Translations under genes and position numbers: made by a program
IMG/VR virus record: IMGVR_UViG_3300037541_000451
Span: 13,730-77,729 of that record
Direction: 5' to 3' (one strand)
From: a virus
Lineage: Duplodnaviria; Caudoviricetes
DNA length: 64,000 bases
The notes under the pieces: generated by a model
What the model was told of the DNA's origin: nothing
The model's input: only the letters and a program-made list of their open reading frames with translations
The model's database searches: none
Shown: one piece after another, positions 6,327 through 56,720 of the stretch
Position numbering within the stretch: position 1 is the stretch's first letter
Layout: every line of letters starts with the position of its first letter

Positions 6327-7514
6327 TTAGGAATGGAATACCGGCAGGATACCTAAGGAAAGCGCCGATGTAGCCTTACGAGCCCAAGTGCCGGAAGTAG
6401 ATGCCAAGGTAGCTGATGCTACAGCGGTAAGAGCCTTTAAATCAGAACCTTCTTGGACCTTCAGATAGTCAGCGTCAGCAGGGAATGCATCTTGCGAACC
6501 AGACCAGTTGTAACCGGCGGGATGCAGCACATAGCCCCAACGATACCACACTGAAGTCGTACCACCACCCTTATAAGCAGCAGCCTTGCGCTCAATTTCG
6601 ACAGAATCAGGAACCATGAGAGGCTCCATTGCGAGCGAACCCGGAAGAACAATGAAAGAAGTCTTTGTACCAACAATATCAACACCAGCACCAGTATTCA
6701 GCTTTGTGAGCTCAGCTGTGCTAAAACCTTGTGAAGCTCTTGTTTGAATAAGTCTAAACTTACCCTGGAAGATGGTATTGAAAGTCACATTACCATCAAC
6801 AACAGTGGTGCTATCAACAAGATTGGCTGAACGAAGTGAAGCAACAGTTTCCGGCGAGCAGATCAGATAGGCAAACTCAGGCTCATAGTCCTTGTAGGCC
6901 ATGCCAAAGGCACGAAGGAAGCCTTCAGCTCGAGCAGCGCCTTGAACTGCAGCAGTAGCGTCGATAACAGGCTTGCTTGAGCCAAGATCCACATAGAAAC
7001 CGTGACGACGGCTTGTAGGATCATTCTCAAAGCTCTGACCGCCAAGACCAGTTTGACCTGAACCAGCAGCGCAACCATTTAAGGCTTCAGAGATAGCAAC
7101 ACCGCGAAGCACCGAAAGGATGGCATTGTGCTCGTCTTGCGCACGTGTTTCACCGAAATCACGGCCAATCTTAGCTAAACCATCGACCTGGGTAACAACT
7201 TGCTGCATGTTAACCTTTGTCGCACCATGCGTACGCACGGTCTTGACATAATTAACGTACTCAGACGAATAAGTCGTACCAGCACCATCACTTGCATCTG
7301 TGAGAGACGCAACGTTGATCGTGGGATTCAAAGGCTTGTACCAACGAACCTGACCAACGAAGGTTTCGGTAGAAGTGTCGATAAGAGGATTGCTACCAAC
7401 GATACCAGTGCCCGAAAGCTTCTTGGCAGTTGTGTAAGCTTCGTCAGAATAGGCGCTAATTGCTTCTTGTAAAACAAAATTGTCGGCACCTGCGACATTA
7501 GTACGAACTGTCAT
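6327..7514 (-). CDS. Major capsid protein
   Basis: 395 aa after scaffold and a phage promoter; higher GC (35/60 at 6901-6960) suggests codon adaptation. Confidence 0.85.
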   Translation of the reverse strand: MTVRTNVAGADNFVLQEAISAYSDEAYTTAKKLSGTGIVGSNPLIDTSTETFVGQVRWYKPLNPTINVASLTDASDGAGTTYSSEYVNYVKTVRTHGATKVNMQQVVTQVDGLAKIGRDFGETRAQDEHNAILSVLRGVAISEALNGCAAGSGQTGLGGQSFENDPTSRRHGFYVDLGSSKPVIDATAAVQGAARAEGFLRAFGMAYKDYEPEFAYLICSPETVASLRSANLVDSTTVVDGNVTFNTIFQGKFRLIQTRASQGFSTAELTKLNTGAGVDIVGTKTSFIVLPGSLAMEPLMVPDSVEIERKAAAYKGGGTTSVWYRWGYVLHPAGYNWSGSQDAFPADADYLKVQEGSDLKALTAVASATLASTSGTWARKATSALSLGILPVFHS

Positions 7515-7524: not shown

Positions 7525-8241
7525 CTAACGTTTGGCGAGTCTTCCTTCTCTCGCCATTTTTAAAACTTCGTCCTGTGGTAAAGAAAAGATAGATTTACCT
7601 TCTAGACCACTTGACACACTTTGATTAGGCTTAGCTGGGGAGCCACCAGAACCGCTTGAAATCTTTGGCTTTAAAAGAAATGCATTTTCTTCAGCTTCTG
7701 CAAACTGACGTACAAAATCTCTTAAAGACACGCCAGACTTGTGTCTCCAGATACCTTTGTCGTCTTGTGCGAGCTGTTCTACAATTTCACGATATGCCAT
7801 ATTAAAAGCATTATCATTTTTGAAGGTGTAGCTAGATAACGCACCACGAAGTTCCATGTCACGAGTCAGCTCAATAACACGTTTTTCGTATGCAGCCTTC
7901 TGTGCTCTTTCCTCAGCAAGCTGCATTTCTAAAGCTTCTTTGTGTTTACCTTCTTCCTGAAGGCGCTTTACCTCTTCTTGCTTCCGAAAAGATTCAATTT
8001 CAGCTAACTTTTTTAAAGCTTCGTCACGAGCACCGTAAGCTTTTTCAAGCTTTACCTTAATATCTTTTACAGCGTCTTTGACCTTTTCATCTACAAGCTT
8101 CTTAATCGGTTCTGCAGTTTCATCAGCATTTAAATTTAGATTAGTCTCATTTTCAACTTTGGTTTCGGCACTGCCACCTTCGTTGTTGTTACCATCCAAA
8201 TTTGAATTTTCGCCACTCATTTTTAAATCCTTTGAGTACAA
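7525..8241 (-). CDS. Capsid scaffolding protein
   Basis: Acidic N-terminus, long coiled coil, SSGSGGSP tail; directly upstream of capsid; likely start MSGEN at 8220. Confidence 0.8.
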   Translation of the reverse strand: MYSKDLKMSGENSNLDGNNNEGGSAETKVENETNLNLNADETAEPIKKLVDEKVKDAVKDIKVKLEKAYGARDEALKKLAEIESFRKQEEVKRLQEEGKHKEALEMQLAEERAQKAAYEKRVIELTRDMELRGALSSYTFKNDNAFNMAYREIVEQLAQDDKGIWRHKSGVSLRDFVRQFAEAEENAFLLKPKISSGSGGSPAKPNQSVSSGLEGKSIFSLPQDEVLKMAREGRLAKR

Positions 8242-8301: not shown

Positions 8302-8320
8302 GGGTTAATTTAACGGGTTT
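8302..8320 (-). promoter_or_regulatory. Phage RNAP promoter candidate, copy 1 (AAACCCGTTAAATTAACCC)
   Basis: One of four near-identical intergenic 19-mers in the same orientation; upstream of scaffold/capsid. Confidence 0.8.
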
Positions 8321-8323: not shown

Positions 8324-9707
8324 TTAGCCGACTCCATACCAGCTAAAATCATTTGAAAAACCATCTGGTATTTTCTTTAGGATATCATCTCTATTTAAAA
8401 TATCAGATTCCTTAAGTACCTTTCCACCTACACGTGACTTTCCTGGAATAGGTATTAACCCTAACTCAATTGCTTCATTTAAATATTTATCATACAGTTC
8501 TTTCGAGAGGCCTCTCGCGCGCATTTCTTCTAGAGTTAAAACAATTACATTATTTTTAAGCATTTCAGCATATAGCTGTCTCAAGCCTTTTCTGGCTTCA
8601 ACCATGTCAGATGCATTCGCGAAGAAAGCATCGTGAATAGTAGAAGTTGGAATTTTATTTTCTTTACCCCATAAATGAAATCTTTTTACAATCACAGCAT
8701 CATTAGAATGGTTTCCGTTAACGGCATAAGCTGTTCTAGCTTTACCTATATCAGCAATATCATTAATCTTTCCAGACTTATTTATAACTTGTTGCCACCA
8801 AGTTGCTTCTGTTTTCTGAGGTATTTGTAAGATATTTGTAGTCCAGTTTCCATATTTGTCCTTGTAAATTAGTTTTTCTTCGAATGTTTGTGTGAAGTTC
8901 TGCTCAATTGTTTTGCCATCAAAGTTTACCCAAGGTACATTAGTCCAACTCTTAGGTAGCTTGTTAGCATATAGCACTTCAAATTCTGTAATAGTCTTTA
9001 ATTCTAAAAACTCTGTTTTTAAATACTTAGCACCTACTCGTCTTGTTTCGGGAGTTTCTACACCATAAATGATTTCACTAAGAGTCCCATTAGGCTTCCA
9101 AAAACCAAACCTTTTTAATATCTTTTCACTAAGTGGCTCACCAGCTTTTAAGCCAAAAAGTTTGCTAACACTATCAGGTAAAACATAACCTTTCTTTTTG
9201 GTGCCTAAAAGCTTAATTTTGCTTATTGTTTTCCAATCAAAATCACTATTTGATGGTTTTGCATTGGCTAAATAATCTTGTGCTAATCTACCGAAGTATC
9301 TGGTAAAATCCTTTAAAATTGGAACTTGTTCACCAAGATACTCACTCATTATTTTTGCGATAGCTTTGAAGTCCTCTGGAGTAATTACTTTATCATAAGA
9401 TTTAGTCATTTTTTCAACAAAGTCACGAGTCTTAGGATCTAAGAAATAAAGTTGTTCTAAGATGTCATCTCCGGGGTCTAAACCTTTATTAAAGATATCT
9501 TTTACATTTTGTCTTAATTGCCGTAATTCTTCTGCTGTTTCTTCGTCAAACTTTTCGTATCTTGCTATTCTAGCAGATATTTCATTTAAAACTTGATCTC
9601 TTTCTGATGCTTTTACTACAAGAACATTTTCTTGTTTGTCAAGTATTTTTGCAAGTTTACCTTCAACATTTAATGCGCCTGTTCTTTCACCAGCGCCATA
9701 GAACGTC
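8324..9707 (-). CDS. MuF-RNA polymerase fusion, exon 2 (motif B end, motif C)
   Basis: Open frame G ACG TTC TAT GGC (TFYG...) runs into ORF 8324..9409; NHSNDA...STIHDAF matches T7 motif C; ends WYGVG. Confidence 0.92.
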
Positions 9708-10571
9708 CATTAAAGATAGGAGTAGCCTTGATCACCACGTTTAATACGTTTAGTGATAGTAGAATGATTAATGCCAAGCATTCTACCGGCTTCACGCGTT
9801 GATTCAAATATGCCAAACGGAGTGGAAACTGCTTTTCGTAAATGATGTGCGTTTCTTCCATCTGCCTCTTTACCTTGAATTACTTCATCTTTCCAGTAAT
9901 AACCTTTATGTAATATACTCTTGCTACCAGCTTTTCTAGAAATGACTGCTTTAACAACTTTATGTGCTTTTGCCGCAGCCGCAACAGTCGGGAATTCACC
10001 TAAAGGAGTAATTACAGCTCTTGCTAGTAATGAGTTATCACCACTAACAGCTTCTTTAGCTAATTGATACATTAATGGTGATAGTTTAACGCCATCTCTA
10101 GAGCACATTGTTGCATATGCTACTTTTAAACCTTTTACTTCTGGGAAAGCTTTCATTAATAACCAATGAGCAAGTAAGTGACATCTCGCGTTCAGATAAA
10201 TTAAGTTTGATGAATCGTCACCGCCATCCATACATTTTGGAATAATATGATGACGCTCATAATAACTTTTTAATGGCTTTAGTTGGAAGCCGTGTTTTTC
10301 AATTAAAGCCAAATAATGCTTTTCGTAATCCATTTTAACTCCTAATGTATATTACTATACAGATCAGACTATATCTTACGTCGTCACCTTTTCAGGATAG
10401 TACGTCACCGCGCTTCGGAATTAGCATAATTCCTACGAACTTCATCATCTGGTCTAGATGGTATGTTCTAGTCGTTGCACCTTCAAAGGTATCCCTACCT
10501 AAGCTTGGCTCAGGATTGCCCTTTAAGAAGGGTTTCCCTGAATTCACGGTGTTTATACATGGCAACATTCT
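9708..10571 (-). mobile_element. Group I self-splicing intron (864 nt) with HNH ORF in the P9 region
   Basis: P1 ACAUGGU/GCCAUGU with U.G at the 5' splice site; P10 AGAAUGUU/GACGUUCU; P3 CACCGUG/CGCGGUG; core elements AAUUCAGGGAA, AAUCCUGAGC, GUGCAACGACUA, AAGAUAUAGUC; P9 GUAUA-GUAA-UAUAC; terminal G at 9708. Confidence 0.93.
9710..10333 (-). CDS. Intron-encoded HNH homing endonuclease with two C-terminal NUMOD1/HTH-like repeats
   Basis: ERHHIIPKCMDG..SNLIYL..RCHLLAH; repeats TPLGEFPTVAAAAKAH and TPFGIFESTREAGRML. Confidence 0.9.
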   Translation of the reverse strand: MDYEKHYLALIEKHGFQLKPLKSYYERHHIIPKCMDGGDDSSNLIYLNARCHLLAHWLLMKAFPEVKGLKVAYATMCSRDGVKLSPLMYQLAKEAVSGDNSLLARAVITPLGEFPTVAAAAKAHKVVKAVISRKAGSKSILHKGYYWKDEVIQGKEADGRNAHHLRKAVSTPFGIFESTREAGRMLGINHSTITKRIKRGDQGYSYL

Positions 10572-13500
10572 ACCATGTTTTGAGCTTTAGCAGCTTTTCG
10601 TAAATCTTTTTCCGAAAGTCCTAATTTTTGATTCAAAAGTCTAAATCTAGGATCGTTGTAAGTTGCAGCTGCGATTTCGTCGTAAAGTCTTTTCTTTTGA
10701 TTGGTTGGAATGACATTTGACAGTTCCGCCAATTGTTTATTTCTAGTTGTTAAAGCAATAATCTGAGCACCAGATGAAGAAGCATCTTGCTCGAGTGCTA
10801 ATGAAATATCATAATCTTTAAGTCTAGCAAGAGAGTTTCTGCTATAAGAGCCTTCCAGGTAATTATCAATTTTGGCAGTTTCTAGAGCTAATCTTAAGAA
10901 TTTATTAAGATCTTCTCCATCGATTTTTTGAAAAATCTCTGATTCTAAAATAGCTCTAATGTCATTAGGCTTACTTTTAAGCATATGATTTCCAAGTTTT
11001 ATCATTTCTGGACGCCATTTTGCTGCAATTTTTTGTCTTCCAGTTAAAGTCAATGAGTTATAGTTACCTTCAAAGTAATCACTTAGTCCACCTAAAAAAG
11101 ATCCAATTTGATCTTGCAAATTATAAAAACCTTCTTCACTAAATTTACGTGAAATTTCAGTATTTAAAAATGGTCTAAAAGTTTCACCTGATTGAGGACC
11201 AATTAAACCACGATCATATATTCTAGCCCGATGGTCTATAAACGGATGGTTGCTAAAAGCTTTATTTTCGGCTGTAAGCCACTCCATAGCTTTAATCCGT
11301 TCATATGAGTCACCTCTAGAAGCCATATATTTACGATATTCATTTAAGTCATTATACTTCTTAGCCTGACCTTTATCGTCCTCAAAATATAAAATCTTTT
11401 TTACAAAATTAAGATAATCTTTATCAATCTTATATTTACTTTTAGCTGCCCAATTTAAAGCCTCCACAAAGTCTTTATCAATAAATTCTTCTGGAAAATC
11501 ACTGAAACTAGAAGTCGATGTTATTGGTATTCTAGTGTCTTCGTAACCTAAAATACCACGATCGATAAAATACGTTTTATAACCTTCTCTAAACACTAAT
11601 CTATTTTTGTCTTCAGTTACAGAAACACGTAATCCTAATTCAACTTTTCTTACTAATTTAGCGTATTCTTGTATTCTTGGATCTACAATTCGAATATTAT
11701 AAGATAATGTATCATAATATGGCCCAAAATAAGCACCACTCATCATACTTTTCATTCTTCTTTTTTGAACACCAAAAGTTTCAATTTCAAAGAACTTTTT
11801 AACGTTCTTAGCCTCTAAAAGACTCATCCCTAGCTCGTACCATTTACGTCTATTACCATTTATATTAGCAAGATTATATAAATCACGTCCTAAAGCAACA
11901 GCAAATTGATCGCGATCTGGGCTATCAGCAAGGCTTAGCCTGTGAGCAAACTTTAAATAAAATTGTTGTAGATCTCTGTCAGAGACTCTGTTTCGAATTA
12001 TTAAAGGAATTTTGTAATCGAAAACATTGCGTAATTCATTAGCAATTCCAGGGGCTATTTTGTCTTCCCATCTGTTTTTCTTTAAAATATTTTCAATAAA
12101 TTCGTCATGTAATTCTTGCAGTTGAGTGCTTCCCAAAACAGGATCTATGTAATTATCTTGTAAAAGCTTTTTAAGAAAATCAGAGTCTTTTCGCAGCTGT
12201 GTTTCTACGAAATCAGAAACGTTCATAACATCAAACTTGATTTGGCCTTGAACAACTGCTTTAAAGTTAGACCAAATTTGATTATTAGATCTGTATCTGC
12301 CAAAAATGATTCTTAAGTTATCAGCAACTACGGCACGTTCGTTTATACTCATACGATCTGCTAAAGATTCAACAATATCTTTAATAAAGGCTTTATCTCT
12401 ATCTAATAGTTTTTCACTTTCATCAATGAGTCTAATATTATTTGCTAAAACAGCTGGATTTGGTTGATACAAACGCACATCTTCGTATCTACCAGTTATA
12501 GGGTTAAATTTGAGTTGGTCCTCACGAGGAGGACTAGCTAGAACTCTATTTTTTACACCTCTTTTTACATTTAATAGAGTACCTCTATAGTTGGTCAAAG
12601 ACAATGTTCCATTAAGCTCACCAGATTGTAATAAATAATAATCTATTAAGCGTTTCTTTAATTCATCATTTCCAATAAAATCATCCGGTGTTGATGCACC
12701 TAGCTGTAATGCATCTAACTTTTCTTTAGCTAAAGCAAACTTTTTAGTGTCATTTGGTAAGGTGTATCCACTATCACTTAAAGCTCTGAGCTCCTTGATT
12801 CCAACAGATGCACCGTCTGGTGCTGTAAACCTATCTACAGTAAGCTCTCCGCTACGAAGGAGTTCAACCTTTTGATAATCACCAAGATGTTTTAATTGGA
12901 TCTCTTTGGATTGTCTGCTTAACCATGTATTATAAGACTCTCTTAAAGGTGTCTGACCGTCATAATATACAATCTGTTCTTTAGTCAAGTTTTCAATATT
13001 GCGTTTGCGGACTTGAGCTGCACCTTCTAATTTAGAGATATCATTCCAGTTCTTAAAAACAGGTATTGTTGTAGATCTACAATGAAAGTGCGCAGGTGGT
13101 AAGTGTTTTCTATCATCTATCGGATAAATATTTCCATCACGATGTGCACATAAAGGAGTGGTTCTAGAATCTAAAACAGCTACATATTGCCAGCCTTGTA
13201 AAGCTTTTTCGTTAGCTTTATAGACTTCTTGATCTGTTTGTGCAGTAACGGATGTAACTGCTGTTACAACTAAAGCTCTAGACTGAGATCTGGTAATGCT
13301 GTGAATATTATTCTTACGAACATCTAAAGCAATTTCATCAATTGTTTTATTATCTGCAATACCTTTTCTAATTACTGCTTCTAGTCTCTTTCTTTCACTT
13401 TCACCAACTCCACCCCAACCTTGTAACAAAGTTCTATCGTTAAAAAGCGGTCTTTCTAAAACAATTTCTTCAGCAACTCTTTTGGCAGGTCGTTCTGCTC

Positions 13501-13816
13501 TCCAAATCTTACCCATAGATGTTTCTATGGTTTGATAGGTATAAGAGAGCTGATCTGATACTAAGTCTAGTAAAGATCTTTTTGAAATGCTATAAGCTTC
13601 TCTATAAGTTTTTTGTAGTTCTTGATCAATAGCTTCACGAAGTTTTTCAAAGCCTTTTTGAGATAAACTTGCTTCTCTTATTAGCTTATCCACTCTTACT
13701 TCGTGGCCGTCAATTACAAGTGATACTTTGTTATTTAATCTTTTTTCGTACAAGCGGATCATTGCCGCTCGATCAATGGTTCTATCATATATGTCTGTAT
13801 TCGCATTGTTAGCCAT
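10572..13816 (-). CDS. MuF (SPP1 gp7-like minor head) domain fused to T7-family RNA polymerase, exon 1; spliced product 1542 aa
   Basis: MuF motif WQYVAVLDSRTTPLC..RDG...PPAHFHCRST; RNAP motifs DHRARIY, EQDASSSGAQ (A), RKAAKAQNMV|TFYG (B). Confidence 0.92.
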
Positions 13817-14105: not shown

Positions 14106-14795
14106 TTAATCGCCCCACATGCGTTTACGAATTTTTTCAGCCGTTTGTTTAACATCTGAACCACTTTGATTAATTAGATTTTTACTATAAGATCTAATAT
14201 CGCTGACTTTTTCATAGTCTCTAGCTTGCTTAACAATTGCATCTTCGTTAGCCTTAGCTTTTGTTGCAACATTAATCTTATTAGCGATAGAATCTTGTTT
14301 AATTGTTTTTTCGTAAATTCTAGAATCGATTTCTCTTCGCAAAGCACTGTTGGTACGCTCAGCTTCATTAATTTTTCTTTTACTGTTTTTGTTAAGAATT
14401 GCATCAGCAGCCAAAAAAGTCATTGCTGCACCAATTGCAGCAGGAGGCGATATTACTGACATGGGCGCTGTCATAATTACCCCATCTTTTACATAAGATT
14501 TTAATTCCTTATCTTTATAATTTGAAATTAAATCCTCATTTACAATATTTTTGATTTTTACTCTATTCAATTGATTAAGCTCATCACGAGTTTTATTAAG
14601 CTCTTTAGAATCAGATTCAATGTTTCGGTTATAAAGCGTAGAAAACGCCTTTGAAAAAGCAGCTTTCTGATTCAATTTTTGCTGTTTTTCTCTAGTTGCG
14701 AAATAACCACCAATACTATAACGGTATCCAGGCGAAGAACCATCTTTTGTGTATTGGTTTACACCTTCTGGATTATTTGTTTTTCCGGTTGCCAT
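14106..14795 (-). CDS. Candidate internal/ejected virion protein A
   Basis: N-terminal [16 protein letters not shown] shared with neighbour; one hydrophobic segment plus coiled coils. Confidence 0.6.
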
Positions 14796-14847: not shown

Positions 14848-15414
14848 TTAAGTTTGCTTAAACTGCCTTTGATGGCCTGTCGCTTTTCTAACAGCTTCTT
14901 CCTCTCTGTCAATCTTGTAACCTAAATATCCACCAGTAACGGCACCGCCCACAGTATTTATGCCTATTTTGAGTGCAGGATTCATCTTAGCAACCATCTG
15001 AGCAGATTTGAATACAAGAGCTCCAATGCCGGCTCCCATCGCAGCTGTTGGAATACCTAAAGATGCAGCACCTATTGCTTTTCCCTTAGGAGTAGAACCA
15101 ATTGATGCGCCTGATGTACCGCCCGCAATTGCACCTGCAGCTCCATAGAGTTTTGCTGCATTCGAAGTATTTTTTACCTTATCTAGAAAAATTCGAGTAG
15201 TAGCATTGCCTATAACACCGCTTGCCGCGCCTATAGCTGCTCCGGCCGCAGCATATTTAACGGTTTTATCGACTGCTTCCCAATTTTCTTTAGTTCTTTC
15301 TTTTGCACTTGCAAATGCGCCTCCAACTCTTGTTTTAGCAGCTTCGAATGTAGATTTAGGCTTGCCAGTGTATTGATTTATACCTTCTGGGTTGTTAGTT
15401 TTACCAGTTGCCAT
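14848..15414 (-). CDS. Candidate internal/ejected virion protein B (glycine-zipper hydrophobic segments)
   Basis: N-terminal [16 protein letters not shown]; repeated AAAGAAIGA/GAIAGG/GAVTGG segments. Confidence 0.6.
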   Translation of the reverse strand: MATGKTNNPEGINQYTGKPKSTFEAAKTRVGGAFASAKERTKENWEAVDKTVKYAAAGAAIGAASGVIGNATTRIFLDKVKNTSNAAKLYGAAGAIAGGTSGASIGSTPKGKAIGAASLGIPTAAMGAGIGALVFKSAQMVAKMNPALKIGINTVGGAVTGGYLGYKIDREEEAVRKATGHQRQFKQT

Positions 15415-15423: not shown

Positions 15424-17004
15424 TTAAGCTACTCCATCACCATTTGCAATACCTTCAAGAACCCGATTTGGTGCTTGAGCCTTCATTACAGCTTCCATAT
15501 CAGCTGTTATCTCCTGTTTACCAGCTTCATCGTCATAATCGGGCGGCATTAAGTCATTTTGTTTGAGTAACATAATCCAAATAGATCTAGGAATTAAGCC
15601 TTGTTGATACCATTCTGTGGCAAGTCTCAACCAATCAGCACCAAGAGGTACTGGATTAAAATCATCAGATAAACTAAACTTCACATCTGATGCTTTAATA
15701 CCAATCGAATAACGCCAGCTTATCATAAACGCAATCACTTGAGACATTATAGAGCTAATCTTGCTATTTAATGTACCAAGTCTGGCTGTTTGAGCAGCGT
15801 TTCTAATTTCTAATGCAATGCCTGATTGAGATGTTTCAGGGCTCAGCATTCTAATGCCAAGCTTTGCCATTTCTTCAATGCCGCTGGCAATAGCTTTTTC
15901 CATGTCAGATAGAGCATCTGTAGGAGTCTCTAGTACTTTTGCATCATCGCCTTGTCTAAGGCGTAACCAAGTGCCTAAACCGCTATTGACTAACTTATCA
16001 AAGTCATCATCAGACATGTCTGAAATGATGACCGGAGTATATGTTGAAGCACCATAAAGTAAATGATTTCTTCGGCTTATTTTATTATACAAGCTTAATT
16101 CTTTATCAATAATTTGAGAAAGCATTGGTTCTACTGGATCAATAGAACCATTAAGAGGCCATGCTGGAATAAATCTTAGACGTTCGCCTTCTAAAAGAAT
16201 ATTAGTCTTTGTCTCAACAAGATCAAAAATATCTTTATGTTCAGAAGGCCTTAAAACTTGTTGCCCTGCAACGACAGGCAGTTGAGTCGTATCAGCCTTC
16301 TTTTGAAAAATACGTATTTGATAGTAGCCATCTTTATCTAATTCATGAACCCATACTGTATCACGGTAAGTAGGATGAAATTCATATTGAGAATAGTCTT
16401 CTTTAAAACCACGAATAATTACCCTGTTAAGTATTGATTTACCGTATTCATTTTCACTAATTCTCCAATTTATAATTGATTCTGCTTTTTGTAGTATAGG
16501 GTAAGGTTTGTAATTTAGTTTATCATCTGCACTTAGATTATTTTCATCAGGAATATTAGGATAATCAACAAAGATCCATGCTCTGCTTGTTTGAACTTCT
16601 TCCCACAATGCTAAGTCAAGAAAAGCTGTCAAAGATGAGTCATCTTTTCCAAACTCATTCATGATCCAATTATAAGCGTCTGCAGGAACTGATGCGGGTA
16701 ATTCGAGTAAGGGCTTCTTTCTAAGAAGCCCACCTACAATCATTTTAGCAAATTCAGAGGTTATCCCAGGAAGTTCTGCTTCTGCCTTATAGAACTCATA
16801 CTGTTCCTGGGACATTTTGGGAGAGAATGGTATTAAGAAATTAGTAAAAGAAAGTCTATCAAGATAGTTATCATATGCTTTTACATACCGTTCACCGCTA
16901 CAAACCGCTCTGCTCCTGTTCCAGAGCGGTTTTAAGGACTCAAAAGAGGCATTTGGATCCGCTACGGTTTTTACAGGAGCTTGTGCTGCATTTATAATGG
17001 CCAC
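15424..17004 (-). CDS. Portal protein
   Basis: 526 aa, DUF4055-type portal features (YKAEAELP, RFIPAWPLN, SGIALEIR); position upstream of MuF. Confidence 0.85.
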   Translation of the reverse strand: MAIINAAQAPVKTVADPNASFESLKPLWNRSRAVCSGERYVKAYDNYLDRLSFTNFLIPFSPKMSQEQYEFYKAEAELPGITSEFAKMIVGGLLRKKPLLELPASVPADAYNWIMNEFGKDDSSLTAFLDLALWEEVQTSRAWIFVDYPNIPDENNLSADDKLNYKPYPILQKAESIINWRISENEYGKSILNRVIIRGFKEDYSQYEFHPTYRDTVWVHELDKDGYYQIRIFQKKADTTQLPVVAGQQVLRPSEHKDIFDLVETKTNILLEGERLRFIPAWPLNGSIDPVEPMLSQIIDKELSLYNKISRRNHLLYGASTYTPVIISDMSDDDFDKLVNSGLGTWLRLRQGDDAKVLETPTDALSDMEKAIASGIEEMAKLGIRMLSPETSQSGIALEIRNAAQTARLGTLNSKISSIMSQVIAFMISWRYSIGIKASDVKFSLSDDFNPVPLGADWLRLATEWYQQGLIPRSIWIMLLKQNDLMPPDYDDEAGKQEITADMEAVMKAQAPNRVLEGIANGDGVA

Positions 17005-27400: not shown

Positions 27401-27409
27401 GGTTGCTCC

Positions 27410-37785: not shown

Positions 37786-38610
37786 TCATCGAATTACCTC
37801 AATATTGGAGTAACTTCTAGGCTTAATGCCATGATATTTATAGCTACCCGACTCTGCTCCATAACGTTGAAAAGTTTCTACAGGATTCTCTTGATACTTA
37901 AGCGGAATACTATGTCCTAATATACCACCTTTCCAAGAACCTTTTTCGTATCCTGTTTCCTTGTCGTAGTCAACATATAAACGACAAATTCTAATAGGTT
38001 TGGTAAAGTACTTTAACCACCTGCACCAACTGACACCACGATGATACTTAGTCATCGTGATATAGCAAGTTGCAATTATTTTTTCACTATCGAAATCATC
38101 AAATTTAATATGAAACTTTGGTACATATTTTCGTATTAGCTCCATAGAGTCAAAATCTAAAGCTCCTTTTTGATTTAGAGGCTCTACAGTCCAATATTCG
38201 AACCATTCTGGTGTGAAATATGTTTCACCCATGAAAGTGTTATTAGACCATGGTATATAAAATACTTTAGTATGATCGGAATTCTTTTTATCCTTAGAAC
38301 TCCATGAACCCGGTTGGATACCGTAATGAAGATGTAAGTGACCTTCACTGACAGTAAATCCATACTCACGAGCGATATAATCCCAATATCCACCTTTGGG
38401 ATTTGTAGACCATACTTCTTTACTCGTATCAACCCATTTCTTTACTGGTTTAATAATCGGTGGAATTTGCCACCACCAAGAACGTTTTCCAAATTGGATA
38501 TTCAATAAACAATAGTTGGTTCTTGAGTCTTCATCTTCCCATGGAGTCCTTACGTTAAAAGCGTAAGTCTTATATGATTTTTCTTTATGATATTCTCTAA
38601 GCTTGAACAT
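37786..38610 (-). CDS. Hypothetical protein (Trp/Tyr-rich)
   Basis: 274 aa open frame. Confidence 0.7.
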   Translation of the reverse strand: MFKLREYHKEKSYKTYAFNVRTPWEDEDSRTNYCLLNIQFGKRSWWWQIPPIIKPVKKWVDTSKEVWSTNPKGGYWDYIAREYGFTVSEGHLHLHYGIQPGSWSSKDKKNSDHTKVFYIPWSNNTFMGETYFTPEWFEYWTVEPLNQKGALDFDSMELIRKYVPKFHIKFDDFDSEKIIATCYITMTKYHRGVSWCRWLKYFTKPIRICRLYVDYDKETGYEKGSWKGGILGHSIPLKYQENPVETFQRYGAESGSYKYHGIKPRSYSNIEVIR

Positions 38611-46909: not shown

Positions 46910-47001
46910 TCCTTTAGCGCACAGCGCTATTGTTTAAGAAATCGTAGCACATGCTACATATAAGATACCGCATTTTTCGTACGGCTACTTATTCAGAATA
47001 A

Positions 47002-47198: not shown

Positions 47199-47690
47199 CT
47201 AGGTTTCGATTAGTTCTTTAGTGATAGAATCTCGGTACTCGATCTTAGGCGTATACGGAAATGTTACAGGAACCCTACTTTCATAACTTGTAAAAGCTGA
47301 TCTAGTTTTCTTCTTGGTCTCTGGGTCTATAAACCATTCCATCCATACAATACCTTGAATGTCGTAGGCACCAGTGTTATCTTTAAACACATGACCGCAA
47401 CGTTTATTTTGATAAAGAGGACCACTATCTCGTCCACCGAATTCACTTACATTGCTCCACTCCCAATCTTCACCTGTTAAAGGCACAATCGGTTCATATT
47501 TTGCAAGTGTTGAGAATAAGTTTATTGTATACAGTGCTGTAGTTCCTGAATGTCCTTCATCAGAAAATACTTTCAAAAGCTTTAAAATATGCTTACAAAT
47601 AGCTTCCTGCATTTCGTCTTTGAACTTGTTGTTCTCATCACACCAACCTGCAGCACGAAACTCTGTCCAAGCATGAAATTCTAAACTCAT
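47199..47690 (-). CDS. Conserved phage hypothetical protein
   Basis: VFSDEGHSG...PIVPLTGEDWEW...YQNKRC.HVFKD. Confidence 0.75.
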   Translation of the reverse strand: MSLEFHAWTEFRAAGWCDENNKFKDEMQEAICKHILKLLKVFSDEGHSGTTALYTINLFSTLAKYEPIVPLTGEDWEWSNVSEFGGRDSGPLYQNKRCGHVFKDNTGAYDIQGIVWMEWFIDPETKKKTRSAFTSYESRVPVTFPYTPKIEYRDSITKELIET

Positions 47691-50231: not shown

Positions 50232-51137
50232 TTAAATATCAATCACTGAACGAAAACCTACTGCTCTTCCAAACCTAGGTTTATTTTTAATGCCATATAA
50301 GAAGTATCTAAATTTAATTAGTTTACCTCTATACTGATCAATATTAGACAAAAGTTTTCTTCGTTGATCGTGAGTGAAACTTCCTGAAGAAATTTCAATT
50401 TCATCACCTTCAAACTCTATAATCAACGTTCCTGCAATTTCACTTTCTACTAGATTTTCTTTTCGAGAGGATCTCTTAGCATATCCCAATTCATCGCGTT
50501 CTAACGGATTATGATTGGTCATTGCTGGCAAGACATCAATTAAAACGCCTTCAGCTTCTTTAAATCGTTTTAGTTTATAAATTATGTTTTGATTGAAAGT
50601 AGCTCTACCCATTTTATATGGAGATAGCGGGTTTCGAAGCATTACGCCTTCGTAACCTTGAGCCAATACTTCCATTTCATAAGCAATTAACTCATTATAA
50701 TTATTTACTTCATGATGCTCTAGAAATATATATTCAGATGATAAACTTTGAATTGCTGTTACTAATCTTTTAGCTTCAAATAATCTTTCATAGAAAGGTC
50801 TGTTAATCCAATCAGGATGAGTGTAATCAAATGCATAATATTTAAGATTACCAGGTTTGTCTTCTGACATTACATGGCTTTGTGTCCTATTATATACATT
50901 TGGATCTGTAGCTTCACCTTCAATTAGTTCACCGTCCAAGTGCTCAATATATGTAAAATCAGACTGAACTTGATAAGATGGTAATTGTAAAAAACTACGC
51001 GACATTGCCTTTTTATACTTTACAATACATCTAATGCCGTCAAGTTTTGGAGAACACAAATAAGGGTATTGAAGTCTTTTAAAATAATCTGGAAAAGAAA
51101 GAGGGTCTTCTCCAGATGCTAGAAGCGGCTTAAACAT
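50232..51137 (-). CDS. ATP-dependent DNA ligase
   Basis: SPKLDGIRC, LDGELI, YAFD, YEGVMLR, KLK. Confidence 0.95.
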   Translation of the reverse strand: MFKPLLASGEDPLSFPDYFKRLQYPYLCSPKLDGIRCIVKYKKAMSRSFLQLPSYQVQSDFTYIEHLDGELIEGEATDPNVYNRTQSHVMSEDKPGNLKYYAFDYTHPDWINRPFYERLFEAKRLVTAIQSLSSEYIFLEHHEVNNYNELIAYEMEVLAQGYEGVMLRNPLSPYKMGRATFNQNIIYKLKRFKEAEGVLIDVLPAMTNHNPLERDELGYAKRSSRKENLVESEIAGTLIIEFEGDEIEISSGSFTHDQRRKLLSNIDQYRGKLIKFRYFLYGIKNKPRFGRAVGFRSVIDI

Positions 51138-51139
51138 AA

Positions 51140-51430
51140 TTAATTAGTACCTCCGTAACTTTCATCAGTGCCCCATCCTACAGATGTCAGTGCAGACTCA
51201 TGATCACCATCCATTGAATCCATAGCTTGTTCCGTTACATAACGATTCTCGACGAATGCTTCTAATGCCTCTTTCCAGTCAAGTAGAGGCATCTGTAAAT
51301 GATTATCATCTATACAATGGAAGTCTAAGAATTTTTTGAATTTTTCTTCATCTGCTGTCAAGGTTTCGAACTCGTCGAGAAGTGTTCGCATGTATGAAAG
51401 AAATTCATTTCGATCCATTTTTAACCCCAA
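51140..51430 (-). CDS. Hypothetical acidic protein
   Basis: DGDHESALTSVGWGTDESYG. Confidence 0.6.
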   Translation of the reverse strand: MGLKMDRNEFLSYMRTLLDEFETLTADEEKFKKFLDFHCIDDNHLQMPLLDWKEALEAFVENRYVTEQAMDSMDGDHESALTSVGWGTDESYGGTN

Positions 51431-51777
51431 ACAATGTCGTCACCAAGTGCAATCGCAATCCTAACCAATGTATCAAAGTCCTTTAGCCTTTCTAAAACAT
51501 AACTGTTGAGTTGATGAATTTTTTCAAGATCTTTGATTTTTTTCAAAAGATTTTCAAATTCTTTCGATGAAATTTCACCACTATAAACTGCTTTGAATCC
51601 TAACACTTCGAGCATGCGAAGTGCGTTTACATTACTCAGATTGATTTCAAAAAAGATTGGCTTTGGATATGTTTTTGGATTAAAGAAATCATCGTTTGGT
51701 TTACTCGGATCATAATAATTGTTTCTTGCCTGATAAGAAACGTGTCCGTGTTTTTTAAGAAAGAATGTAATAGACAT
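51421..51777 (-). CDS. Hypothetical protein
   Basis: Packed, same strand. Confidence 0.6.
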   Translation of the reverse strand: MSITFFLKKHGHVSYQARNNYYDPSKPNDDFFNPKTYPKPIFFEINLSNVNALRMLEVLGFKAVYSGEISSKEFENLLKKIKDLEKIHQLNSYVLERLKDFDTLVRIAIALGDDIVWG

Positions 51778-51779
51778 TT

Positions 51780-51998
51780 TTAACCTCCAAGAATGATTTT
51801 AGATTCTTCTTTCTTCTGAGTCTGTTGTTTGTCAAGCTCGTTTAAGATGTAAACTAAAGTTTGTATAATTAAATTACTGCGCTCAAGAAGGACTGGCATA
51901 GTGGCCGCTGCTGGATTGCCTAATAGCGGGTTGTTGTACTTATTTACAATTTCTTGATCTTTTTGAATTAATAGCTGTTTTATTTCAAATGGTGACAT
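51780..51998 (-). CDS. Hypothetical protein
   Basis: Packed, same strand. Confidence 0.55.
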   Translation of the reverse strand: MSPFEIKQLLIQKDQEIVNKYNNPLLGNPAAATMPVLLERSNLIIQTLVYILNELDKQQTQKKEESKIILGG

Positions 51999-52232
51999 TT
52001 TATTTTCCCGTTTAATAAATAAAACGCTTCGTTGGCTCTGGAACCTCGCATATGAAATACTCTGAAGATTTTAAAATATAAACTTTCTGATCTAGATATA
52101 CTTTACTAAGCAATACAGCTTGTTTAGAAGCTTCCTCATAATTGCTATATTTTTTCCCAGGAAATACACCTTTCACAATAAACTATGTAAAAAGAATCTT
52201 CTGACTTTTTCATATTAACCTTTCAATTTTAA

Positions 52233-52254
52233 AGGGCACCATCAAGGGCGCCCT
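52233..52254 (-). terminator. Intrinsic terminator
   Basis: AGGGCGCC/GGTGCCCT stem then TT-AAAATT on the minus strand. Confidence 0.6.
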
Positions 52255-52258
52255 AAAT

Positions 52259-52576
52259 TTATTTACTAATATAATGCATGATCTTCATAAAATCATGTAC
52301 TTCCATATTCAGCATTTCTTCGATCGTAGGTGACTTTTCATCAATCCTTGTAACTAGCGTTGCTAGTTTCAAACTTTGAGCTAAATCATCAGGATCTCTG
52401 GCTGCTAACAAATGAAACACTTTGACTTTATAAACACTTACAAATCGACCGTCTGAAAGTACAAGTTCACCTTTCTTATCGGATTGGACAGGCTCCGCTA
52501 GCACATTCGTCTGCGCTTTCGAATTCTGCGTTGCCGATTGAGTTGATGACACAAGTTTTTGCAACCAATTCATCAT
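52259..52576 (-). CDS. Hypothetical protein, start uncertain (overlaps RNR end)
   Basis: C-terminal ~70 aa fill the gap to the terminator. Confidence 0.4.
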   Translation of the reverse strand: MMNWLQKLVSSTQSATQNSKAQTNVLAEPVQSDKKGELVLSDGRFVSVYKVKVFHLLAARDPDDLAQSLKLATLVTRIDEKSPTIEEMLNMEVHDFMKIMHYISK

Positions 52577-54380
52577 ACCTTTCCTTCGTTATTTCTTCAT
52601 AAGGAGCTTGCGCAAAACCGTGCTCAGAATGGAGTAAAAATGAAAGACTTTTATGGTTATCTTTGTAATGGTCTTTCAAATAAGCCTTTATTTCAGGTAT
52701 TTCTTCTTTGCGATAGTAAATAGTACAAGACACACTATTGTCAGACCAATCACGTTGAAGTCTTCTAATTTCATTTAATTGATCCATCGCAGTCATGTCT
52801 TTTGCAAGACGCGTACCTTCAGGATAACTAAATGGAAATGTTACAACAACCGTGTTATAATCTTCTGAGCCATCAAAGTTTTTAACGTACTCAACAGGAT
52901 AGCCAGCATTTCGACACGTATCAACTAGCTCATGATTAGCTGCGATTCGAATTCTGCGATACATATACTGAGCGTATGCAGGATGAATGCCAGGAGTTAC
53001 TCCAGGGAGTAACGACAGAGTACCTGAAGGCTTTACTGTTGTTAACTTAATACTAGGTTGAAAATCCTTGAGTTCTGAATAACGATCGTCAAAATCTCTC
53101 AGATACAAATAGCCTTCATCCAACCATGAATTCTGTTCCTCTGTGGCTTGCTGAATACCTGTTACGCTAATACCCATTCGCATGTTCTTATGAACAATAC
53201 GCTCAGTTTCTGGATGATGTGAAGGTAATGTTAATGAGTGTTTGTTAATGCGATACAAAAGTTCGCTAATATCTAAAAATTCTTCTTTACTTTTGACATT
53301 TGGCAAAAAGATTTCAGCAAGACAGCATGTCTCATATGGCGCTAAAGATTGCTCTGCGCAAGGATTATAACCAATAACATCAGGATCAGGGTATTCAGTT
53401 TCCCCTAAACGACCTACTTTACGAGAAAGCGGTAAATTAATTAGACCGTACGGCTCACCTTTACCTTCGTAGCCATCCCAGAAATATTCATGGAGATCTT
53501 CAATATTATCACAAGCTACGCTGTTGTTTGACATTGCACGCCAAGAAGGGATATTACCCATGTCCCAGCGCTTAGCAAGCAAGTACTCTACATCATCCGG
53601 ATCGCCAATTGCAATTTGAGCTGATCTACGAACATTACCGGCTACAATAATGTAACCAATAATATTCATAATGTCAAGCGCATCAATTGGCCTTATTTTC
53701 TTACCGCGTCGCTTTTCTAAGATCTCTGAAATCTTGCCAATACCCCAACACAATTCTTCAGGGCCACTTGCTACTCCACCAAAACCTTTTATAGGAGTTC
53801 CTTTACCTCGAATAACTTGAGTGGAGTAGGTGAATGTTCCCTTTTCCTTAATTTCGCTTAAGAATGCAGCTTTTAGTGTTTTGCCAAGAAATTTTACCCA
53901 GCCTTCTCTTGAATCAGGAATAATAAAATCGGCGCCGCCATTATCAACTCGTGTTGGAGCTTTAAACCAGTCACGCACTACTGGAAGCTTATCAACGTAC
54001 TTCTTTTGAATATTATAGCCTACACCTGCTCCTAAGGCGAGCATATCCATCGTCCAACAGAAAGGTCTGACGGGGCTGTCTACTACTGTGAATGCACAGT
54101 TCTGTAAGGAAGCTAGACCAAACCTATCGACTGTTTTTGTACCGAGTTGCCATAAAAATCTTCCAGCAACAGAGCACTTAAGGTTTAGGAAGTAATACCT
54201 AAGACGCGCCTCCTCGTCCTTAGTAAAACCGACATTTAATTGTTTATCACACGCTTCAATAATACGCTCGATCGTCTCCGGGAATTCTTCAGTCCTGTTT
54301 GTGTTTTCAACAGGCCTTGCATATGTTCTTTTGTAGGTAAGATAACCAACAGTTGACCACGGGATTACAGTTTCGCTCAT
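52476..54380 (-). CDS. nrdJ: Class II (B12-dependent) ribonucleotide reductase, monomeric RTPR type
   Basis: SLQNCA, GNVRRSA, GYNPCAEQ, ETCCLAE, TTVKPSGT, C-terminal CASGACPIR. Confidence 0.92.
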   Translation of the reverse strand: MSETVIPWSTVGYLTYKRTYARPVENTNRTEEFPETIERIIEACDKQLNVGFTKDEEARLRYYFLNLKCSVAGRFLWQLGTKTVDRFGLASLQNCAFTVVDSPVRPFCWTMDMLALGAGVGYNIQKKYVDKLPVVRDWFKAPTRVDNGGADFIIPDSREGWVKFLGKTLKAAFLSEIKEKGTFTYSTQVIRGKGTPIKGFGGVASGPEELCWGIGKISEILEKRRGKKIRPIDALDIMNIIGYIIVAGNVRRSAQIAIGDPDDVEYLLAKRWDMGNIPSWRAMSNNSVACDNIEDLHEYFWDGYEGKGEPYGLINLPLSRKVGRLGETEYPDPDVIGYNPCAEQSLAPYETCCLAEIFLPNVKSKEEFLDISELLYRINKHSLTLPSHHPETERIVHKNMRMGISVTGIQQATEEQNSWLDEGYLYLRDFDDRYSELKDFQPSIKLTTVKPSGTLSLLPGVTPGIHPAYAQYMYRRIRIAANHELVDTCRNAGYPVEYVKNFDGSEDYNTVVVTFPFSYPEGTRLAKDMTAMDQLNEIRRLQRDWSDNSVSCTIYYRKEEIPEIKAYLKDHYKDNHKSLSFLLHSEHGFAQAPYEEITKERYDELVAKTCVINSIGNAEFESADECASGACPIR

Positions 54381-54396
54381 TTAATATCCGTCAGTG

Positions 54397-56049
54397 TTAA
54401 ATTGTTACGAATTCTTCAACATCTGCGGTTGAACCGATTAATCTACCAGTATCATAGATGTAGTGTGCACCCTTAACATTACCAGTTAAACCAGTATGTC
54501 TGCACTTTAAAATTCTCATTTTAATCGTGTTTCTTTCAGCTTCACTATCAGCAATCAAGTTTCTAGCGAATGATATAATATCAAAAGATACTTGTTTGAT
54601 TGAACCAGAACCTCGGATGTCATCTAGGGATGGTAGTACACCTTCTTCAAAGGCTTTCTTTGTGTTCGGAGTCTTACGCAAATGCGAAACTAAACCAATC
54701 CAAGGTGTATGTCTTTTTGCAATTCTTAAAAGATCATTCATGATTTTGTCTTGAGCTTCATTGCCTGTTAAGTTTTCAACACCTTCTGAGACAAGAATCG
54801 TAATGTGATCAATGAATAAGTACTTGCAGCCTACCAGACACATATATTCTAGCTTGTCTATAATACTACTATCATTGATAGAACCTTGATGGTCTAGCAA
54901 CACGACGCGATCGTTATTAAATACCTTATCAAAACCTTCTCTAAGCTCTTCTAAAGGGATCTCATCCTTTGCAGGATTTCGAAGCAGCGCCATACCAGCC
55001 AACTTACGTGCGGTTTCTGCAGGAGATTCTTCTAAACTGACTACTCCGATTTTATCTTCAGTAGTCATTAAAATATGTAACATTATTTCTCTAAGGACAG
55101 TGCTTTTACCACTACCTGTTCCAGAAATAAATAATGCGATTTCGCCAAATCTCATTCCTTTTAGTTTCGAATTTACACCATCAAGACAAGGCGGATAAGG
55201 TACAGACTGAATTTTATTATAATTTTCTAGAGCATTCCAAAGATCTTCTTTAGTAATAATACCACTAGGAATATACGGAGCTGCATCAAAAATACATTGT
55301 AAAAGTTTATTTCCGTCAGCTTTTAAAAGAACTTCATTTGCATCTTTGAATGGAAGCTTTGTAATTTTTGCTTTATCAATTCCGATAATCTTGATAGCTT
55401 CAGCACAAGCTTCCTTACCAGCATTATCTTCATCAAGGCACAGCACGACTTCACTAAATGATCTAATCCAATCTCTATTTTCCAATAGAGACTTAGTCAT
55501 TGAAGCAGATGAAAGAGCTGCTACTGGATATATTTTATTATACTTTTCCATAGACGCTTGAGCAACACTTAAAGCATCTATTTCGCCTTCAGTAATTATA
55601 AGTCTTTTGCCGGCACCGTTAAATTTTTCTTTGCCAAATAGATTAAGTGAATTATTAATCCAGCTAAACTTTTTTGGAAGTTCTCTTTTCTTATAAGCTT
55701 TACCGCCGTCATACGGATAATAGTGTGCTTCTATTTCACCGTTTTCATTATAAGAACATTTTACATCAAAAAATTCTGCGACTTGTTTTGTAATACCCCT
55801 GTCTTTAAAACCTCTGACAGGAAGCTCTTTAATTTCATCTATAGAAAGCGATTTGCGGACTTTCGTAAATGTCTCTGTCACTTTTATCTCTTTCTGCTCT
55901 TCAACTTCAGTTTCGTCTCGAGCATCTGCTGGAAAAAATTTCTGACATGAAAAACAAAAAGAAGTACCATCATCATAAAGACGTCTAGCATCACTAGATC
56001 CGCATTCCTTACTTAAGCATCTGAGTCTTGCCTTAGTGAGTTTACCCAT
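54397..56049 (-). CDS. Primase-helicase (T7 gp4-like)
   Basis: Zn finger C..C...CFSC, ITEGEIDA TOPRIM, GTGSGKS, FIDHI, VSHLRK, DIRGSGSIKQ. Confidence 0.95.
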   Translation of the reverse strand: MGKLTKARLRCLSKECGSSDARRLYDDGTSFCFSCQKFFPADARDETEVEEQKEIKVTETFTKVRKSLSIDEIKELPVRGFKDRGITKQVAEFFDVKCSYNENGEIEAHYYPYDGGKAYKKRELPKKFSWINNSLNLFGKEKFNGAGKRLIITEGEIDALSVAQASMEKYNKIYPVAALSSASMTKSLLENRDWIRSFSEVVLCLDEDNAGKEACAEAIKIIGIDKAKITKLPFKDANEVLLKADGNKLLQCIFDAAPYIPSGIITKEDLWNALENYNKIQSVPYPPCLDGVNSKLKGMRFGEIALFISGTGSGKSTVLREIMLHILMTTEDKIGVVSLEESPAETARKLAGMALLRNPAKDEIPLEELREGFDKVFNNDRVVLLDHQGSINDSSIIDKLEYMCLVGCKYLFIDHITILVSEGVENLTGNEAQDKIMNDLLRIAKRHTPWIGLVSHLRKTPNTKKAFEEGVLPSLDDIRGSGSIKQVSFDIISFARNLIADSEAERNTIKMRILKCRHTGLTGNVKGAHYIYDTGRLIGSTADVEEFVTI

Positions 56050-56219
56050 TGAATTAAGACTCCTGAAATTACTGTTAATAAAACGATTAAAAGAGTATAG
56101 TCTTGTGATTCAAACTTAGCTTCAATATTTACCAAATGAACTACACTATAACCTAATGAAAACAACAAAACAATTATAGTTATAAAATTTAGTAAATGCA
56201 CTAAAGTTGTTAATTTCAT
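56013..56219 (-). CDS. Small two-TM membrane protein
   Basis: Two hydrophobic stretches. Confidence 0.5.
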   Translation of the reverse strand: MKLTTLVHLLNFITIIVLLFSLGYSVVHLVNIEAKFESQDYTLLIVLLTVISGVLIQWVNSLRQDSDA

Positions 56220-56220
56220 A

Positions 56221-56700
56221 TTACTCCCTAAATTCAGCCCAAGATCTCACTAATTCTAAACGTTTTTTATGTCTATCTGTTATTGGTTCCTTAACTGGCC
56301 ATGACACTTTTTCAATCAGAGTGTTGTACCAGTTCTTGTCGGTAGGTGCTTCTACCATACACAAAGACCAAGTTTCAGAGTAAGACAACGTTCCTTTTGT
56401 TTTGTATTGTTCTATGCAAATAAAGTCGAATTCTTCTTTAGGTCTTACTTTAAACATTTCATTTAAGACTTTCGAAGAAGACGTATATTTCTTCCAATTT
56501 GACTCTTTACCTTTATTTAAAGCACCTGTTCCATAGTACAGTTTCTTACCTAAATAAAAGCGTTCAAGAATTCTATCTCTAATGACGTATATAAAACCAA
56601 CGCCATCACCCATTTTATCTGGAAATTTCCAGTGACCGTTTAAAGAATTGTTGTATATGATTGGTTTTTCTATTTTAGGTACAGTTCCTGTAAATTTCAT
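56221..56700 (-). CDS. GIY-YIG-like endonuclease
   Basis: GFIYVI...FYLGKK...WKKYTSSS. Confidence 0.65.
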   Translation of the reverse strand: MKFTGTVPKIEKPIIYNNSLNGHWKFPDKMGDGVGFIYVIRDRILERFYLGKKLYYGTGALNKGKESNWKKYTSSSKVLNEMFKVRPKEEFDFICIEQYKTKGTLSYSETWSLCMVEAPTDKNWYNTLIEKVSWPVKEPITDRHKKRLELVRSWAEFRE

Positions 56701-56720
56701 TAAACATCCTTATACGTCTC

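Follow-up and report, generated by a model that had tools for sequence, protein, structure and literature searches.

We analysed a 64,000-nucleotide stretch of DNA, hereafter the window, from a tailed virus of the Caudoviricetes (IMG/VR record IMGVR_UViG_3300037541_000451, positions 13,730 to 77,729), in which the minus strand is the coding strand for all genes. Between the portal and the head scaffolding genes, the unspliced sequence displays three open reading frames (ORFs; Table 1). Removal of a predicted intron and joining of the two flanking exons yields a 4629-nt frame encoding 1542 aa plus the stop codon, in which an N-terminal MuF domain, typical of minor head proteins, is fused to a predicted complete T7-family RNA polymerase (RNAP), as the original prediction had proposed. 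The spliced product, MuF-RNAP, aligns with an uninterrupted metagenomic orthologue of the same length (P0006, 1542 aa) with 78.5% identity and zero gaps, and the catalytic motifs QDASSSG (motif A), motif B and IHDAF (motif C) are found where they had been claimed, starting at aa 1010, 1073 and 1439, respectively.

The gene is split within motif B by a predicted group I intron. The Rfam model RF00028 matches positions 10621..10345 with 75.8 bits, above its gathering score of 50. The end of exon 1, CAUGGU (to position 10572), pairs with intron nt 9-14 (GCCAUG) to form helix P1 with the U·G pair at the 5' splice site, while the first six bases of exon 2, GACGUU, pair with the adjacent intron nt 3-8 (AAUGUU) to form P10, the guide sequence for both helices being contiguous in the intron. 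These two pairings fix the splice junction. Thus, from its core score, P1 with U·G, P10 and terminal G, the element is classified as a group I intron and splicing is predicted. The catalytic core lies at the 5' side, and a homing endonuclease ORF fills the 3' part and stops 2 nt before the splice site. In agreement with the predicted junction, joining of the exons rebuilds motif B as RKAAKAQNMV/TFYG (the slash marks the junction), with exactly the T7 spacing R-x3-K-x7-YG.

Interruptions of this kind recur in the family. Among the 120 closest clusters at 90% identity, 86 are uninterrupted and 34 interrupted; 29 of the 120 stop in motif B at three points (after KA, NMV or TF) and 5 stop at AVNG/NH, which is the T7 H784 motif. 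Homing elements typically target the most constrained sequence. Because the breaks fall in motif B and in NGNH, mobile introns have homed repeatedly into the two most constrained coding stretches of the gene. Separately, four clusters (P0014, P0072, P0085, P0114) are 140-230 aa longer than the others, which suggests in-frame insertions.

The N-terminal domain is matched by Pfam Phage_Mu_F (PF04233) at aa 145-251 (E 7e-14, 53 bits; cut-off 29.6) and by phrog_241, 'head morphogenesis', at aa 1-347 (E 3e-64), and its core residues are invariant in 21 diverse relatives. An AlphaFold model of residues 1-720 of the window protein (predicted local distance difference test, pLDDT, 85.9) displays confident domains separated by low-pLDDT, disordered breaks at 349-356 and 546-555. 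The helical domain between these breaks is confidently modelled and has conserved positions across the family. When this middle region (aa 350-560) was searched alone, no match was found in PHROGs or the ESM Atlas. Foldseek with the N-terminal 720 residues returned nothing at E ≤ 0.001, and a wide VIA-align comparison of the same residues with PDB folds returned generic helical bundles only (Z ≤ 11), covering residues 4-193, so that the fold searches assigned neither the MuF part nor the middle domain. We considered that the middle domain might be part of long MuF proteins, with the phrog_115 envelope reaching residue 549, and dropped this assignment, aa 350-560 alone having no PHROGs match. 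Homology to the phage's own second RNAP starts near residue 640 of the fused protein, opposite residue 62 of the free enzyme (hhalign); taken with the domain breaks, this places the start of the polymerase module at about residue 556-580. The unassigned portion, previously put at about 400 aa, therefore shrinks by model breaks and RNAP homology to about 200-250 aa (357 to about 555-600).

The polymerase module is strongly divergent. Pfam RNA_pol (PF00940) matches exon 2 alone with a marginal 24.4 bits (cut-off 22) and the uninterrupted orthologue with 48.5 bits (E 7.5e-13). Single-sequence phmmer searches of the PDB with either exon gave no meaningful match, and a single-sequence search with the full orthologue gave only a weak match to N4 RNAPII (E 0.16). 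Single sequences being too divergent, detection of T7 RNAP needed a family profile, which comprised 21 members sharing 21-72% identity. The profile matched T7 RNAP with an E-value of 3.5e-22 in three collinear blocks (T7 404-488, 527-579 and 681-861), mitochondrial RNAPs with 1e-16 and two N4 RNAPII subunits with about 1e-5; the N4 virion RNAP (vRNAP) was not found by this sequence search. A match to phrog_2166, 'N4-like RNA polymerase', reached an E-value of 0.00098 only, with no stretch passing alone.

An AlphaFold model of orthologue residues 600-1542 (mean pLDDT 85.5; predicted template modelling score 0.84) superimposes on the T7 RNAP elongation complex (T7 260-883) with Z 29.4 and a root-mean-square deviation of 3.4 Å over 535 residues at 18% identity, some alignments extending to T7 residue 82. 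Mitochondrial RNAPs give Z 27-30 at 14-17% identity, and the N4 mini-vRNAP gives Z about 21 and 6 Å over 512 residues at 10-12% identity. The enzyme is thus closer to T7 and mitochondrial RNAPs than to the N4 vRNAP by both profile and structure. The equivalents of T7 D537, K631, Y639, G640 and D812 are invariant in the 21 relatives, down to 21% identity, and those of H784, H811 and the DxRGR arginines are at least 90% conserved. The full palm, fingers, thumb and specificity-loop region are found in the confident model, forming the right-hand fold. As modelled, the module is a structurally complete T7-family RNAP and, judging by its conserved residues, it looks active.

A second T7-family RNAP, placed by the original prediction at 62789-63468, is present, but only as a C-terminal exon (residues 537-761), the rest lying past the window end. 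The frame 63496..62792 matches Pfam RNA_pol (E 2.4e-22) and phrog_414 (E 4e-36), and the exon shares 80% identity with the RNAP2 of a relative (L085; 761 aa) over residues 537-760 of the latter. Its C-terminus, ILESEYCFC, is comparable to the FAFA end of T7 RNAP. This gene, like that of the fusion, is interrupted in motif B, with the 5' part past the window end. An Rfam search of 63300-64000 found no intron core for it, and the core probably lies past the window end as well. A further free HNH_3 ORF is located at 45203-45679. The fused and free polymerases align with an hhalign probability of 97.4% (E 1e-11) at 19% identity; being only distantly homologous to the second RNAP, the fused polymerase is not a recent duplicate of it.

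The fusion is widespread. A total of 442 clusters, formed at 90% identity, matched at E ≤ 1e-3, and the top 120 of them are at least 68% identical and located on contigs of up to about 90 kb; at the 50% identity level there are 110 representatives, and IMG/VR holds at least 169 loci. MuF was present in 21/21 diverse members sampled and RNA_pol (E<0.001) in 19/21. The fusion is intact in all 21, the only split forms being intron-interrupted. EBPR siphovirus 1 encodes a 59.6% identical protein with the same intron and HNH layout. The cultured roseophages DSS3_VP1 and DSS3_PM1 (Naomviridae), whose DNA contains uracil (dU-DNA), encode a 28.8% identical protein, gp108 (YP_010105321.1), which is 1463 aa long, uninterrupted and annotated as 'head morphogenesis' only. 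Three relatives that are 98-100% complete by CheckV, and DSS3_VP1, have one MuF domain each, the fused one, and this is also the single MuF domain of the partial EBPR siphovirus 1 record. The same three relatives and DSS3_VP1 carry exactly two RNAP genes each, namely the fusion and a free T7-like enzyme of 735-775 aa; fusion and free RNAP share contigs out to the Naomviridae. Among 185,579 species genomes there was one match only, a whole 74-kb phage contig binned in a metagenome-assembled genome, so that these phages are not prophages. A megablast search of 50,697 phage records with the locus gave no match. No dU-DNA pathway gene was recognised among the ORFs scanned and the contigs come from ordinary metagenomes; uracil-DNA is accordingly not proposed for the window phage.

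The MuF-RNAP gene adjoins the portal gene in the head module, as expected of the MuF family. The predicted position between portal and scaffold held (phrog_145 and phrog_206), with two small ORFs intervening on the portal side; in two relatives (L003, L004) the portal gene is followed by only two tiny ORFs and then by the MuF-RNAP gene. The two small ORFs of the window are paralogous: their N-termini and upstream sequence are nearly identical (a 60-nt repeat, 88% identity), and they have weak glycine-zipper matches only.

Two strand-specific motifs accompany the two polymerase genes. Motif 1, AAACCCGTTAAATTAACCC, is 19 nt long with the palindromic core GTTAA-N-TTAAC and occurs in four copies in the window, where 0.02 were expected. 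These copies head four gene blocks (scaffold/head, packaging, unknown and replication), and the one at 8320..8302 starts 4 nt past the MuF-RNAP stop codon, ahead of the scaffold and major head genes. Across the fetched loci and the window, the core has 109 copies, with 0 on the other strand. As CCCGTTAAATTAACCC, this class has five copies in each complete genome, which head large gene blocks; it is absent from DSS3_VP1. Candidate roles for motif 1 are those of a phage-RNAP promoter, a terminator or an operator. Intergenic DNA at 35388-35420 and 46093-46127 contains two stretches of about 32 T each when read on the coding strand (poly-A on the plus strand), which may represent terminator tails, tracts prone to slippage or artefacts of assembly.

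Motif 2 is bipartite, TGCGGAAAA-N4-GGTATCTTATATGA, and is likewise found on the coding strand only. In relatives, the 3-4 kb that precede RNAP2 contain one to three copies; these often directly follow a terminator (hairpin and T-run), and small ORFs with ribosome-binding sites come after them. The window has one copy just downstream of a motif 1 copy, the region upstream of RNAP2 being past the window end. A host sigma-70 promoter was set aside as an explanation, as it is the 'spacer' that is conserved and not the -35-like TTG. Motif 2 is a candidate early promoter class, and the presence of two phage polymerases with two strand-specific motif classes fits a polymerase relay.

Table 1. Features of the MuF-RNAP locus and related elements. 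Positions are those of the window, except for motif 2 in relatives.
Feature	Position	Strand	Description
MuF-RNAP gene	13816..8324	minus	reading frame split by an 864-nt group I intron
Exon 1	13816..10572	minus	aa 1-1081 plus 2 nt of codon 1082; from ORF list, translation and splice check
Exon 2	9707..8324	minus	aa 1082-1542 plus stop; second half of motif B, fingers, specificity-loop region, NGNH (T7 H784), motif C; Pfam RNA_pol; phrog_414 E 1e-7
Unspliced ORFs between portal and scaffold	13816..10553 (1087 aa), 10333..9710 (207 aa), 9409..8324 (361 aa)	minus	
Group I intron (predicted)	10571..9708	minus	864 nt; guide at intron nt 3-14; catalytic core 10571..10345; terminal G at 9708
Intron-encoded homing endonuclease ORF	10333..9710	minus	207 aa; Pfam HNH 1.7e-5, NUMOD1 1.3e-5
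MuF/SPP1-gp7-type minor head domain	13816..12773	minus	aa 1-348; LDSRT...C...PPxHxxCRS core
Conserved helical domain between MuF and polymerase	12748..12182	minus	aa 357-545; confident model, conserved positions across the family
RNAP module, N-terminal part	12151..10574	minus	aa 556-1081; IDHRARIY (T7 DxRGR), motif A, first half of motif B; phrog_414 E 2e-7, T7 profile, structure match
Motif A, QDASSSG	10789..10769	minus	starts at aa 1010; catalytic D1011
Motif B, RKAAKAQNMV/TFYG	10600..10572 + 9707..9695	minus	starts at aa 1073; R1073/K1077/Y1085/G1086
Motif C, IHDAF	8638..8624	minus	starts at aa 1439; H1440-D1441
Portal protein gene (upstream neighbour)	17004..15424	minus	phrog_145 E 6e-57; Pfam DUF4055
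Two paralogous ORFs between portal and MuF-RNAP	15414..14848 (188 aa), 14795..14106 (229 aa)	minus	
Head scaffolding protein gene (downstream neighbour)	8241..7525	minus	phrog_206 E 4e-6
Major head protein gene	7514..6327	minus	phrog_247 E 8e-17; follows scaffold
Second T7-like RNAP, C-terminal exon	63466..62789	minus	residues 537-761 of the 761-aa orthologue, from GGTAYG of motif B; last 225 codons
HNH_3 endonuclease ORF	63978..63511	minus	Pfam HNH_3 E 1.8e-14; directly upstream of the second RNAP exon, interrupts the gene
Motif 1 copies	8302-8320, 35120-35138, 47002-47020, 62096-62114	minus	coding strand only
Motif 2, window copy	about 46985..46956	minus	one copy, just downstream of a motif 1 copy; RNAP2-upstream region past window end
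Motif 2 in relatives	L085 1921, 2921; G001 34552/35552/54331		

The most economical reading of this arrangement, which we hold with moderate confidence, is that MuF-RNAP is loaded into the capsid, ejected, and starts host-independent early transcription, including that of the RNAP2 gene. The group I intron would self-splice and a single 1542-aa protein would be made. Its N-terminal MuF domain would dock it on the portal of the procapsid, where a few copies would be enclosed with the DNA, while the C-terminal 990 residues would constitute an active, promoter-specific T7-type RNAP. Upon infection, MuF-RNAP would exit via the portal and tail along with the DNA and transcribe the early region with no need for the host RNAP; this region would include the gene for the second T7-like RNAP, which would then take over middle and late transcription. 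We infer packaging, ejection and timing from the known behaviour of the MuF family, and the pairing of motifs with enzymes is likewise conjectural. As the fused MuF domain is the only one in these genomes, any MuF head role falls to the fused protein.

Several points weigh against capsid delivery. Copies of motif 1 stand before the early block and the late blocks alike, and some copies are followed by terminator-like hairpins, so that an assignment of motif 2 to the virion RNAP and motif 1 to the second RNAP is not clean; motif 1 could instead be a terminator or an operator. A folded polymerase of 175 kDa must unfold in order to pass through the tail channel. No virion proteomics of DSS3_VP1 was found in Rihtman 2021. 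Finally, the gene sits in the late head operon, and a purely intracellular late role is possible. In such a case, MuF would serve head assembly and might tether the enzyme to procapsids, the RNAP would be a late-gene enzyme or be cleaved off, and nothing functional would be delivered. As a motif 1 copy directly follows the stop codon and thus stands before the scaffold and major head genes, one can imagine a polymerase dedicated to late genes. However, the free T7-like RNAP is already available to transcribe the middle and late genes, an enzyme that is made late cannot initiate transcription of the operon that encodes it, and the fusion has stayed whole in all the diverse relatives apart from intron-interrupted forms. 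Characterised MuF proteins are, moreover, capsid-internal and portal-bound (PMC5576092). Action inside the infected cell only is thus unlikely in our view.

MuF-RNAP could also be packaged and ejected and yet have a mainly mechanical or replicative job, either pulling in the genome by transcription from the leading end or making replication primers. T7 RNAP and N4 vRNAP do pull the genome into the cell by transcription, the catalytic site of MuF-RNAP is intact, its fold is closest to those of T7 and mitochondrial RNAPs, which both also prime replication, and MuF is expected at the portal, beside the DNA end that exits first. Such a job is compatible with early gene expression rather than exclusive of it, and the motif 2 copies before small ORFs with ribosome-binding sites suggest that productive mRNAs are made; we give little credence to its being the main one. 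That the polymerase module is a catalytically dead relic serving as a DNA-binding or pilot protein, as its strong divergence from T7, the empty single-sequence searches of the PDB and the marginal Pfam scores (24-48 bits) might be taken to indicate, is hardly credible given that the catalytic and NTP-selecting residues are invariant or nearly so in a family reaching down to 21% identity and that the model shows complete palm, fingers and thumb at high confidence.

If MuF-RNAP is packaged and active, MuF would be shown to be a general capsid-loading and delivery tag for large enzymes, and a large, globally distributed phage group, including the dU-DNA Naomviridae, would be independent of the host RNAP. 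The latter phages are missed by standard metagenomics. Under the same proviso, a compact (about 990 aa), highly divergent T7-type polymerase with candidate promoters would be a possible orthogonal transcription tool. MuF-RNAP can be tested directly, as DSS3_VP1 and DSS3_PM1 are cultured on Ruegeria pomeroyi DSS-3.

The window displays further features outside these subjects. A T7-like replication module in a siphovirus extends over 61505..50232 (minus), with a family A DNA polymerase, primase-helicase, 5'-3' exonuclease and ATP-dependent ligase, together with a class II ribonucleotide reductase and a DenV-like pyrimidine-dimer glycosylase. Two anti-defence genes encode homologues of the Acb3 inhibitor of the cyclic-oligonucleotide-based anti-phage signalling system (CBASS; 38610..37786, minus; Pfam E 1.6e-38) and of the Thoeris inhibitor Tad3 (47690..47199, minus; Pfam E 3.4e-31), and five tRNA genes are located at 40.8-45.2 kb. 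The G+C content reaches 42-51% at 18025-23256 and about 26000-31000 (minus), against about 35% elsewhere. These regions contain a 1743-aa ORF with internal repeats spaced by 1-2 kb and a group of ORFs with 39-77-nt repeats in common (for example 27438/28964); the ORFs have no Pfam match, and the regions probably hold tail-fibre or receptor-binding genes of different origin.

To our knowledge, virion-carried RNA polymerases come from few and very different phage groups, each having been found as a surprise. If the delivery proposed here is true, MuF-RNAP would reach the same end via a simple domain fusion to a common head protein. As the original prediction had supposed, our literature searches found no published characterisation: no description of a MuF-RNAP fusion was found by full-text search or in targeted reading of papers on the Naomiviridae, marine single-particle genomics and dU enzymes and two surveys of MuF and polyvalent proteins.

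The N4-like strategy that had been suggested stands as a functional analogy. In N4 (Schitoviridae), the single-subunit capsid RNAP gp50 starts early transcription and a second phage RNAP follows, a succession like that proposed here; both polymerase domains belong to the T7 superfamily, and in both cases few early promoter copies lie near one region. The likeness does not extend to lineage or architecture, as MuF-RNAP is closer to T7 and mitochondrial RNAPs and does not have the architecture of gp50. The latter has about 3500 aa, its own N- and C-terminal injection and encapsidation regions, a zincin-like metallopeptidase domain and an N4-like late-gene neighbourhood (PMC5512222), and it has no MuF, whereas MuF-RNAP has 1542 aa with Pfam MuF and RNA_pol only and is encoded in a siphovirus head module. 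N4 is, besides, a podovirus, and its second RNAP is the two-subunit RNAPII, in contrast to the 761-aa T7-like enzyme here. Differing in size, domains, neighbourhood and nearest structural relatives, MuF-RNAP is not a member of the N4 gp50 family. With T7 RNAP it shares the fold and all catalytic motifs, as well as a promoter-like conserved motif of ~17 nt repeated along one strand. In contrast, T7 RNAP is free-standing, made early by the host RNAP and not packaged, and MuF-RNAP is extended N-terminally by 555 residues and has, ahead of the specificity-loop region, an insertion of ~100 aa that is specific to its clade.

On the side of the carrier, MuF was found in over half of siphoviruses in one survey (Jamet 2017, PMC5576092). 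In SPP1, gp7 is a portal-binding protein with 1-2 copies in each capsid (PMC5576092), and delivery with the DNA has been proposed for MuF-cargo fusions (Jamet 2017, PMC5576092; Iyer 2017, PMC5512222); in neither of these two papers is RNAP listed as a cargo. MuF polymorphic toxins likewise combine an N-terminal MuF, encoded beside the portal gene, with a C-terminal enzymatic cargo. Their cargo is a toxin with an immunity gene, in mostly temperate phages, whereas MuF-RNAP carries a polymerase that would serve the phage's own programme and is followed by the scaffold gene with no immunity gene, in phages that appear lytic. The nearest conceptual precedent in a siphovirus is Thermus phage P23-45, whose virion RNAP is fused to a structural protein that leaves the particle and transcribes pre-early genes, including that for a second, non-virion RNAP (PMC10770324). 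There, the carrier is the tape measure protein and the RNAP is homologous to cellular enzymes, while here the carrier is MuF and the RNAP a T7-type single-subunit enzyme.

Altogether, these comparisons raise the possibility, which we consider evenly balanced, that a compact T7-type polymerase with a portal-binding MuF tag constitutes a third, independent route to virion transcription in tailed phages, after the N4/crAss-type giants and the multisubunit or tape-measure-fused RNAPs. Such an enzyme, which in the uracil-DNA Naomviridae may be what enables dU-DNA to be transcribed as soon as infection begins, would read a few early TGCGGAAAA-N4-GGTATCTTATATGA promoters and launch a two-polymerase programme fully independent of the host RNAP, a design common to hundreds of uncultured siphoviruses and the Naomviridae.

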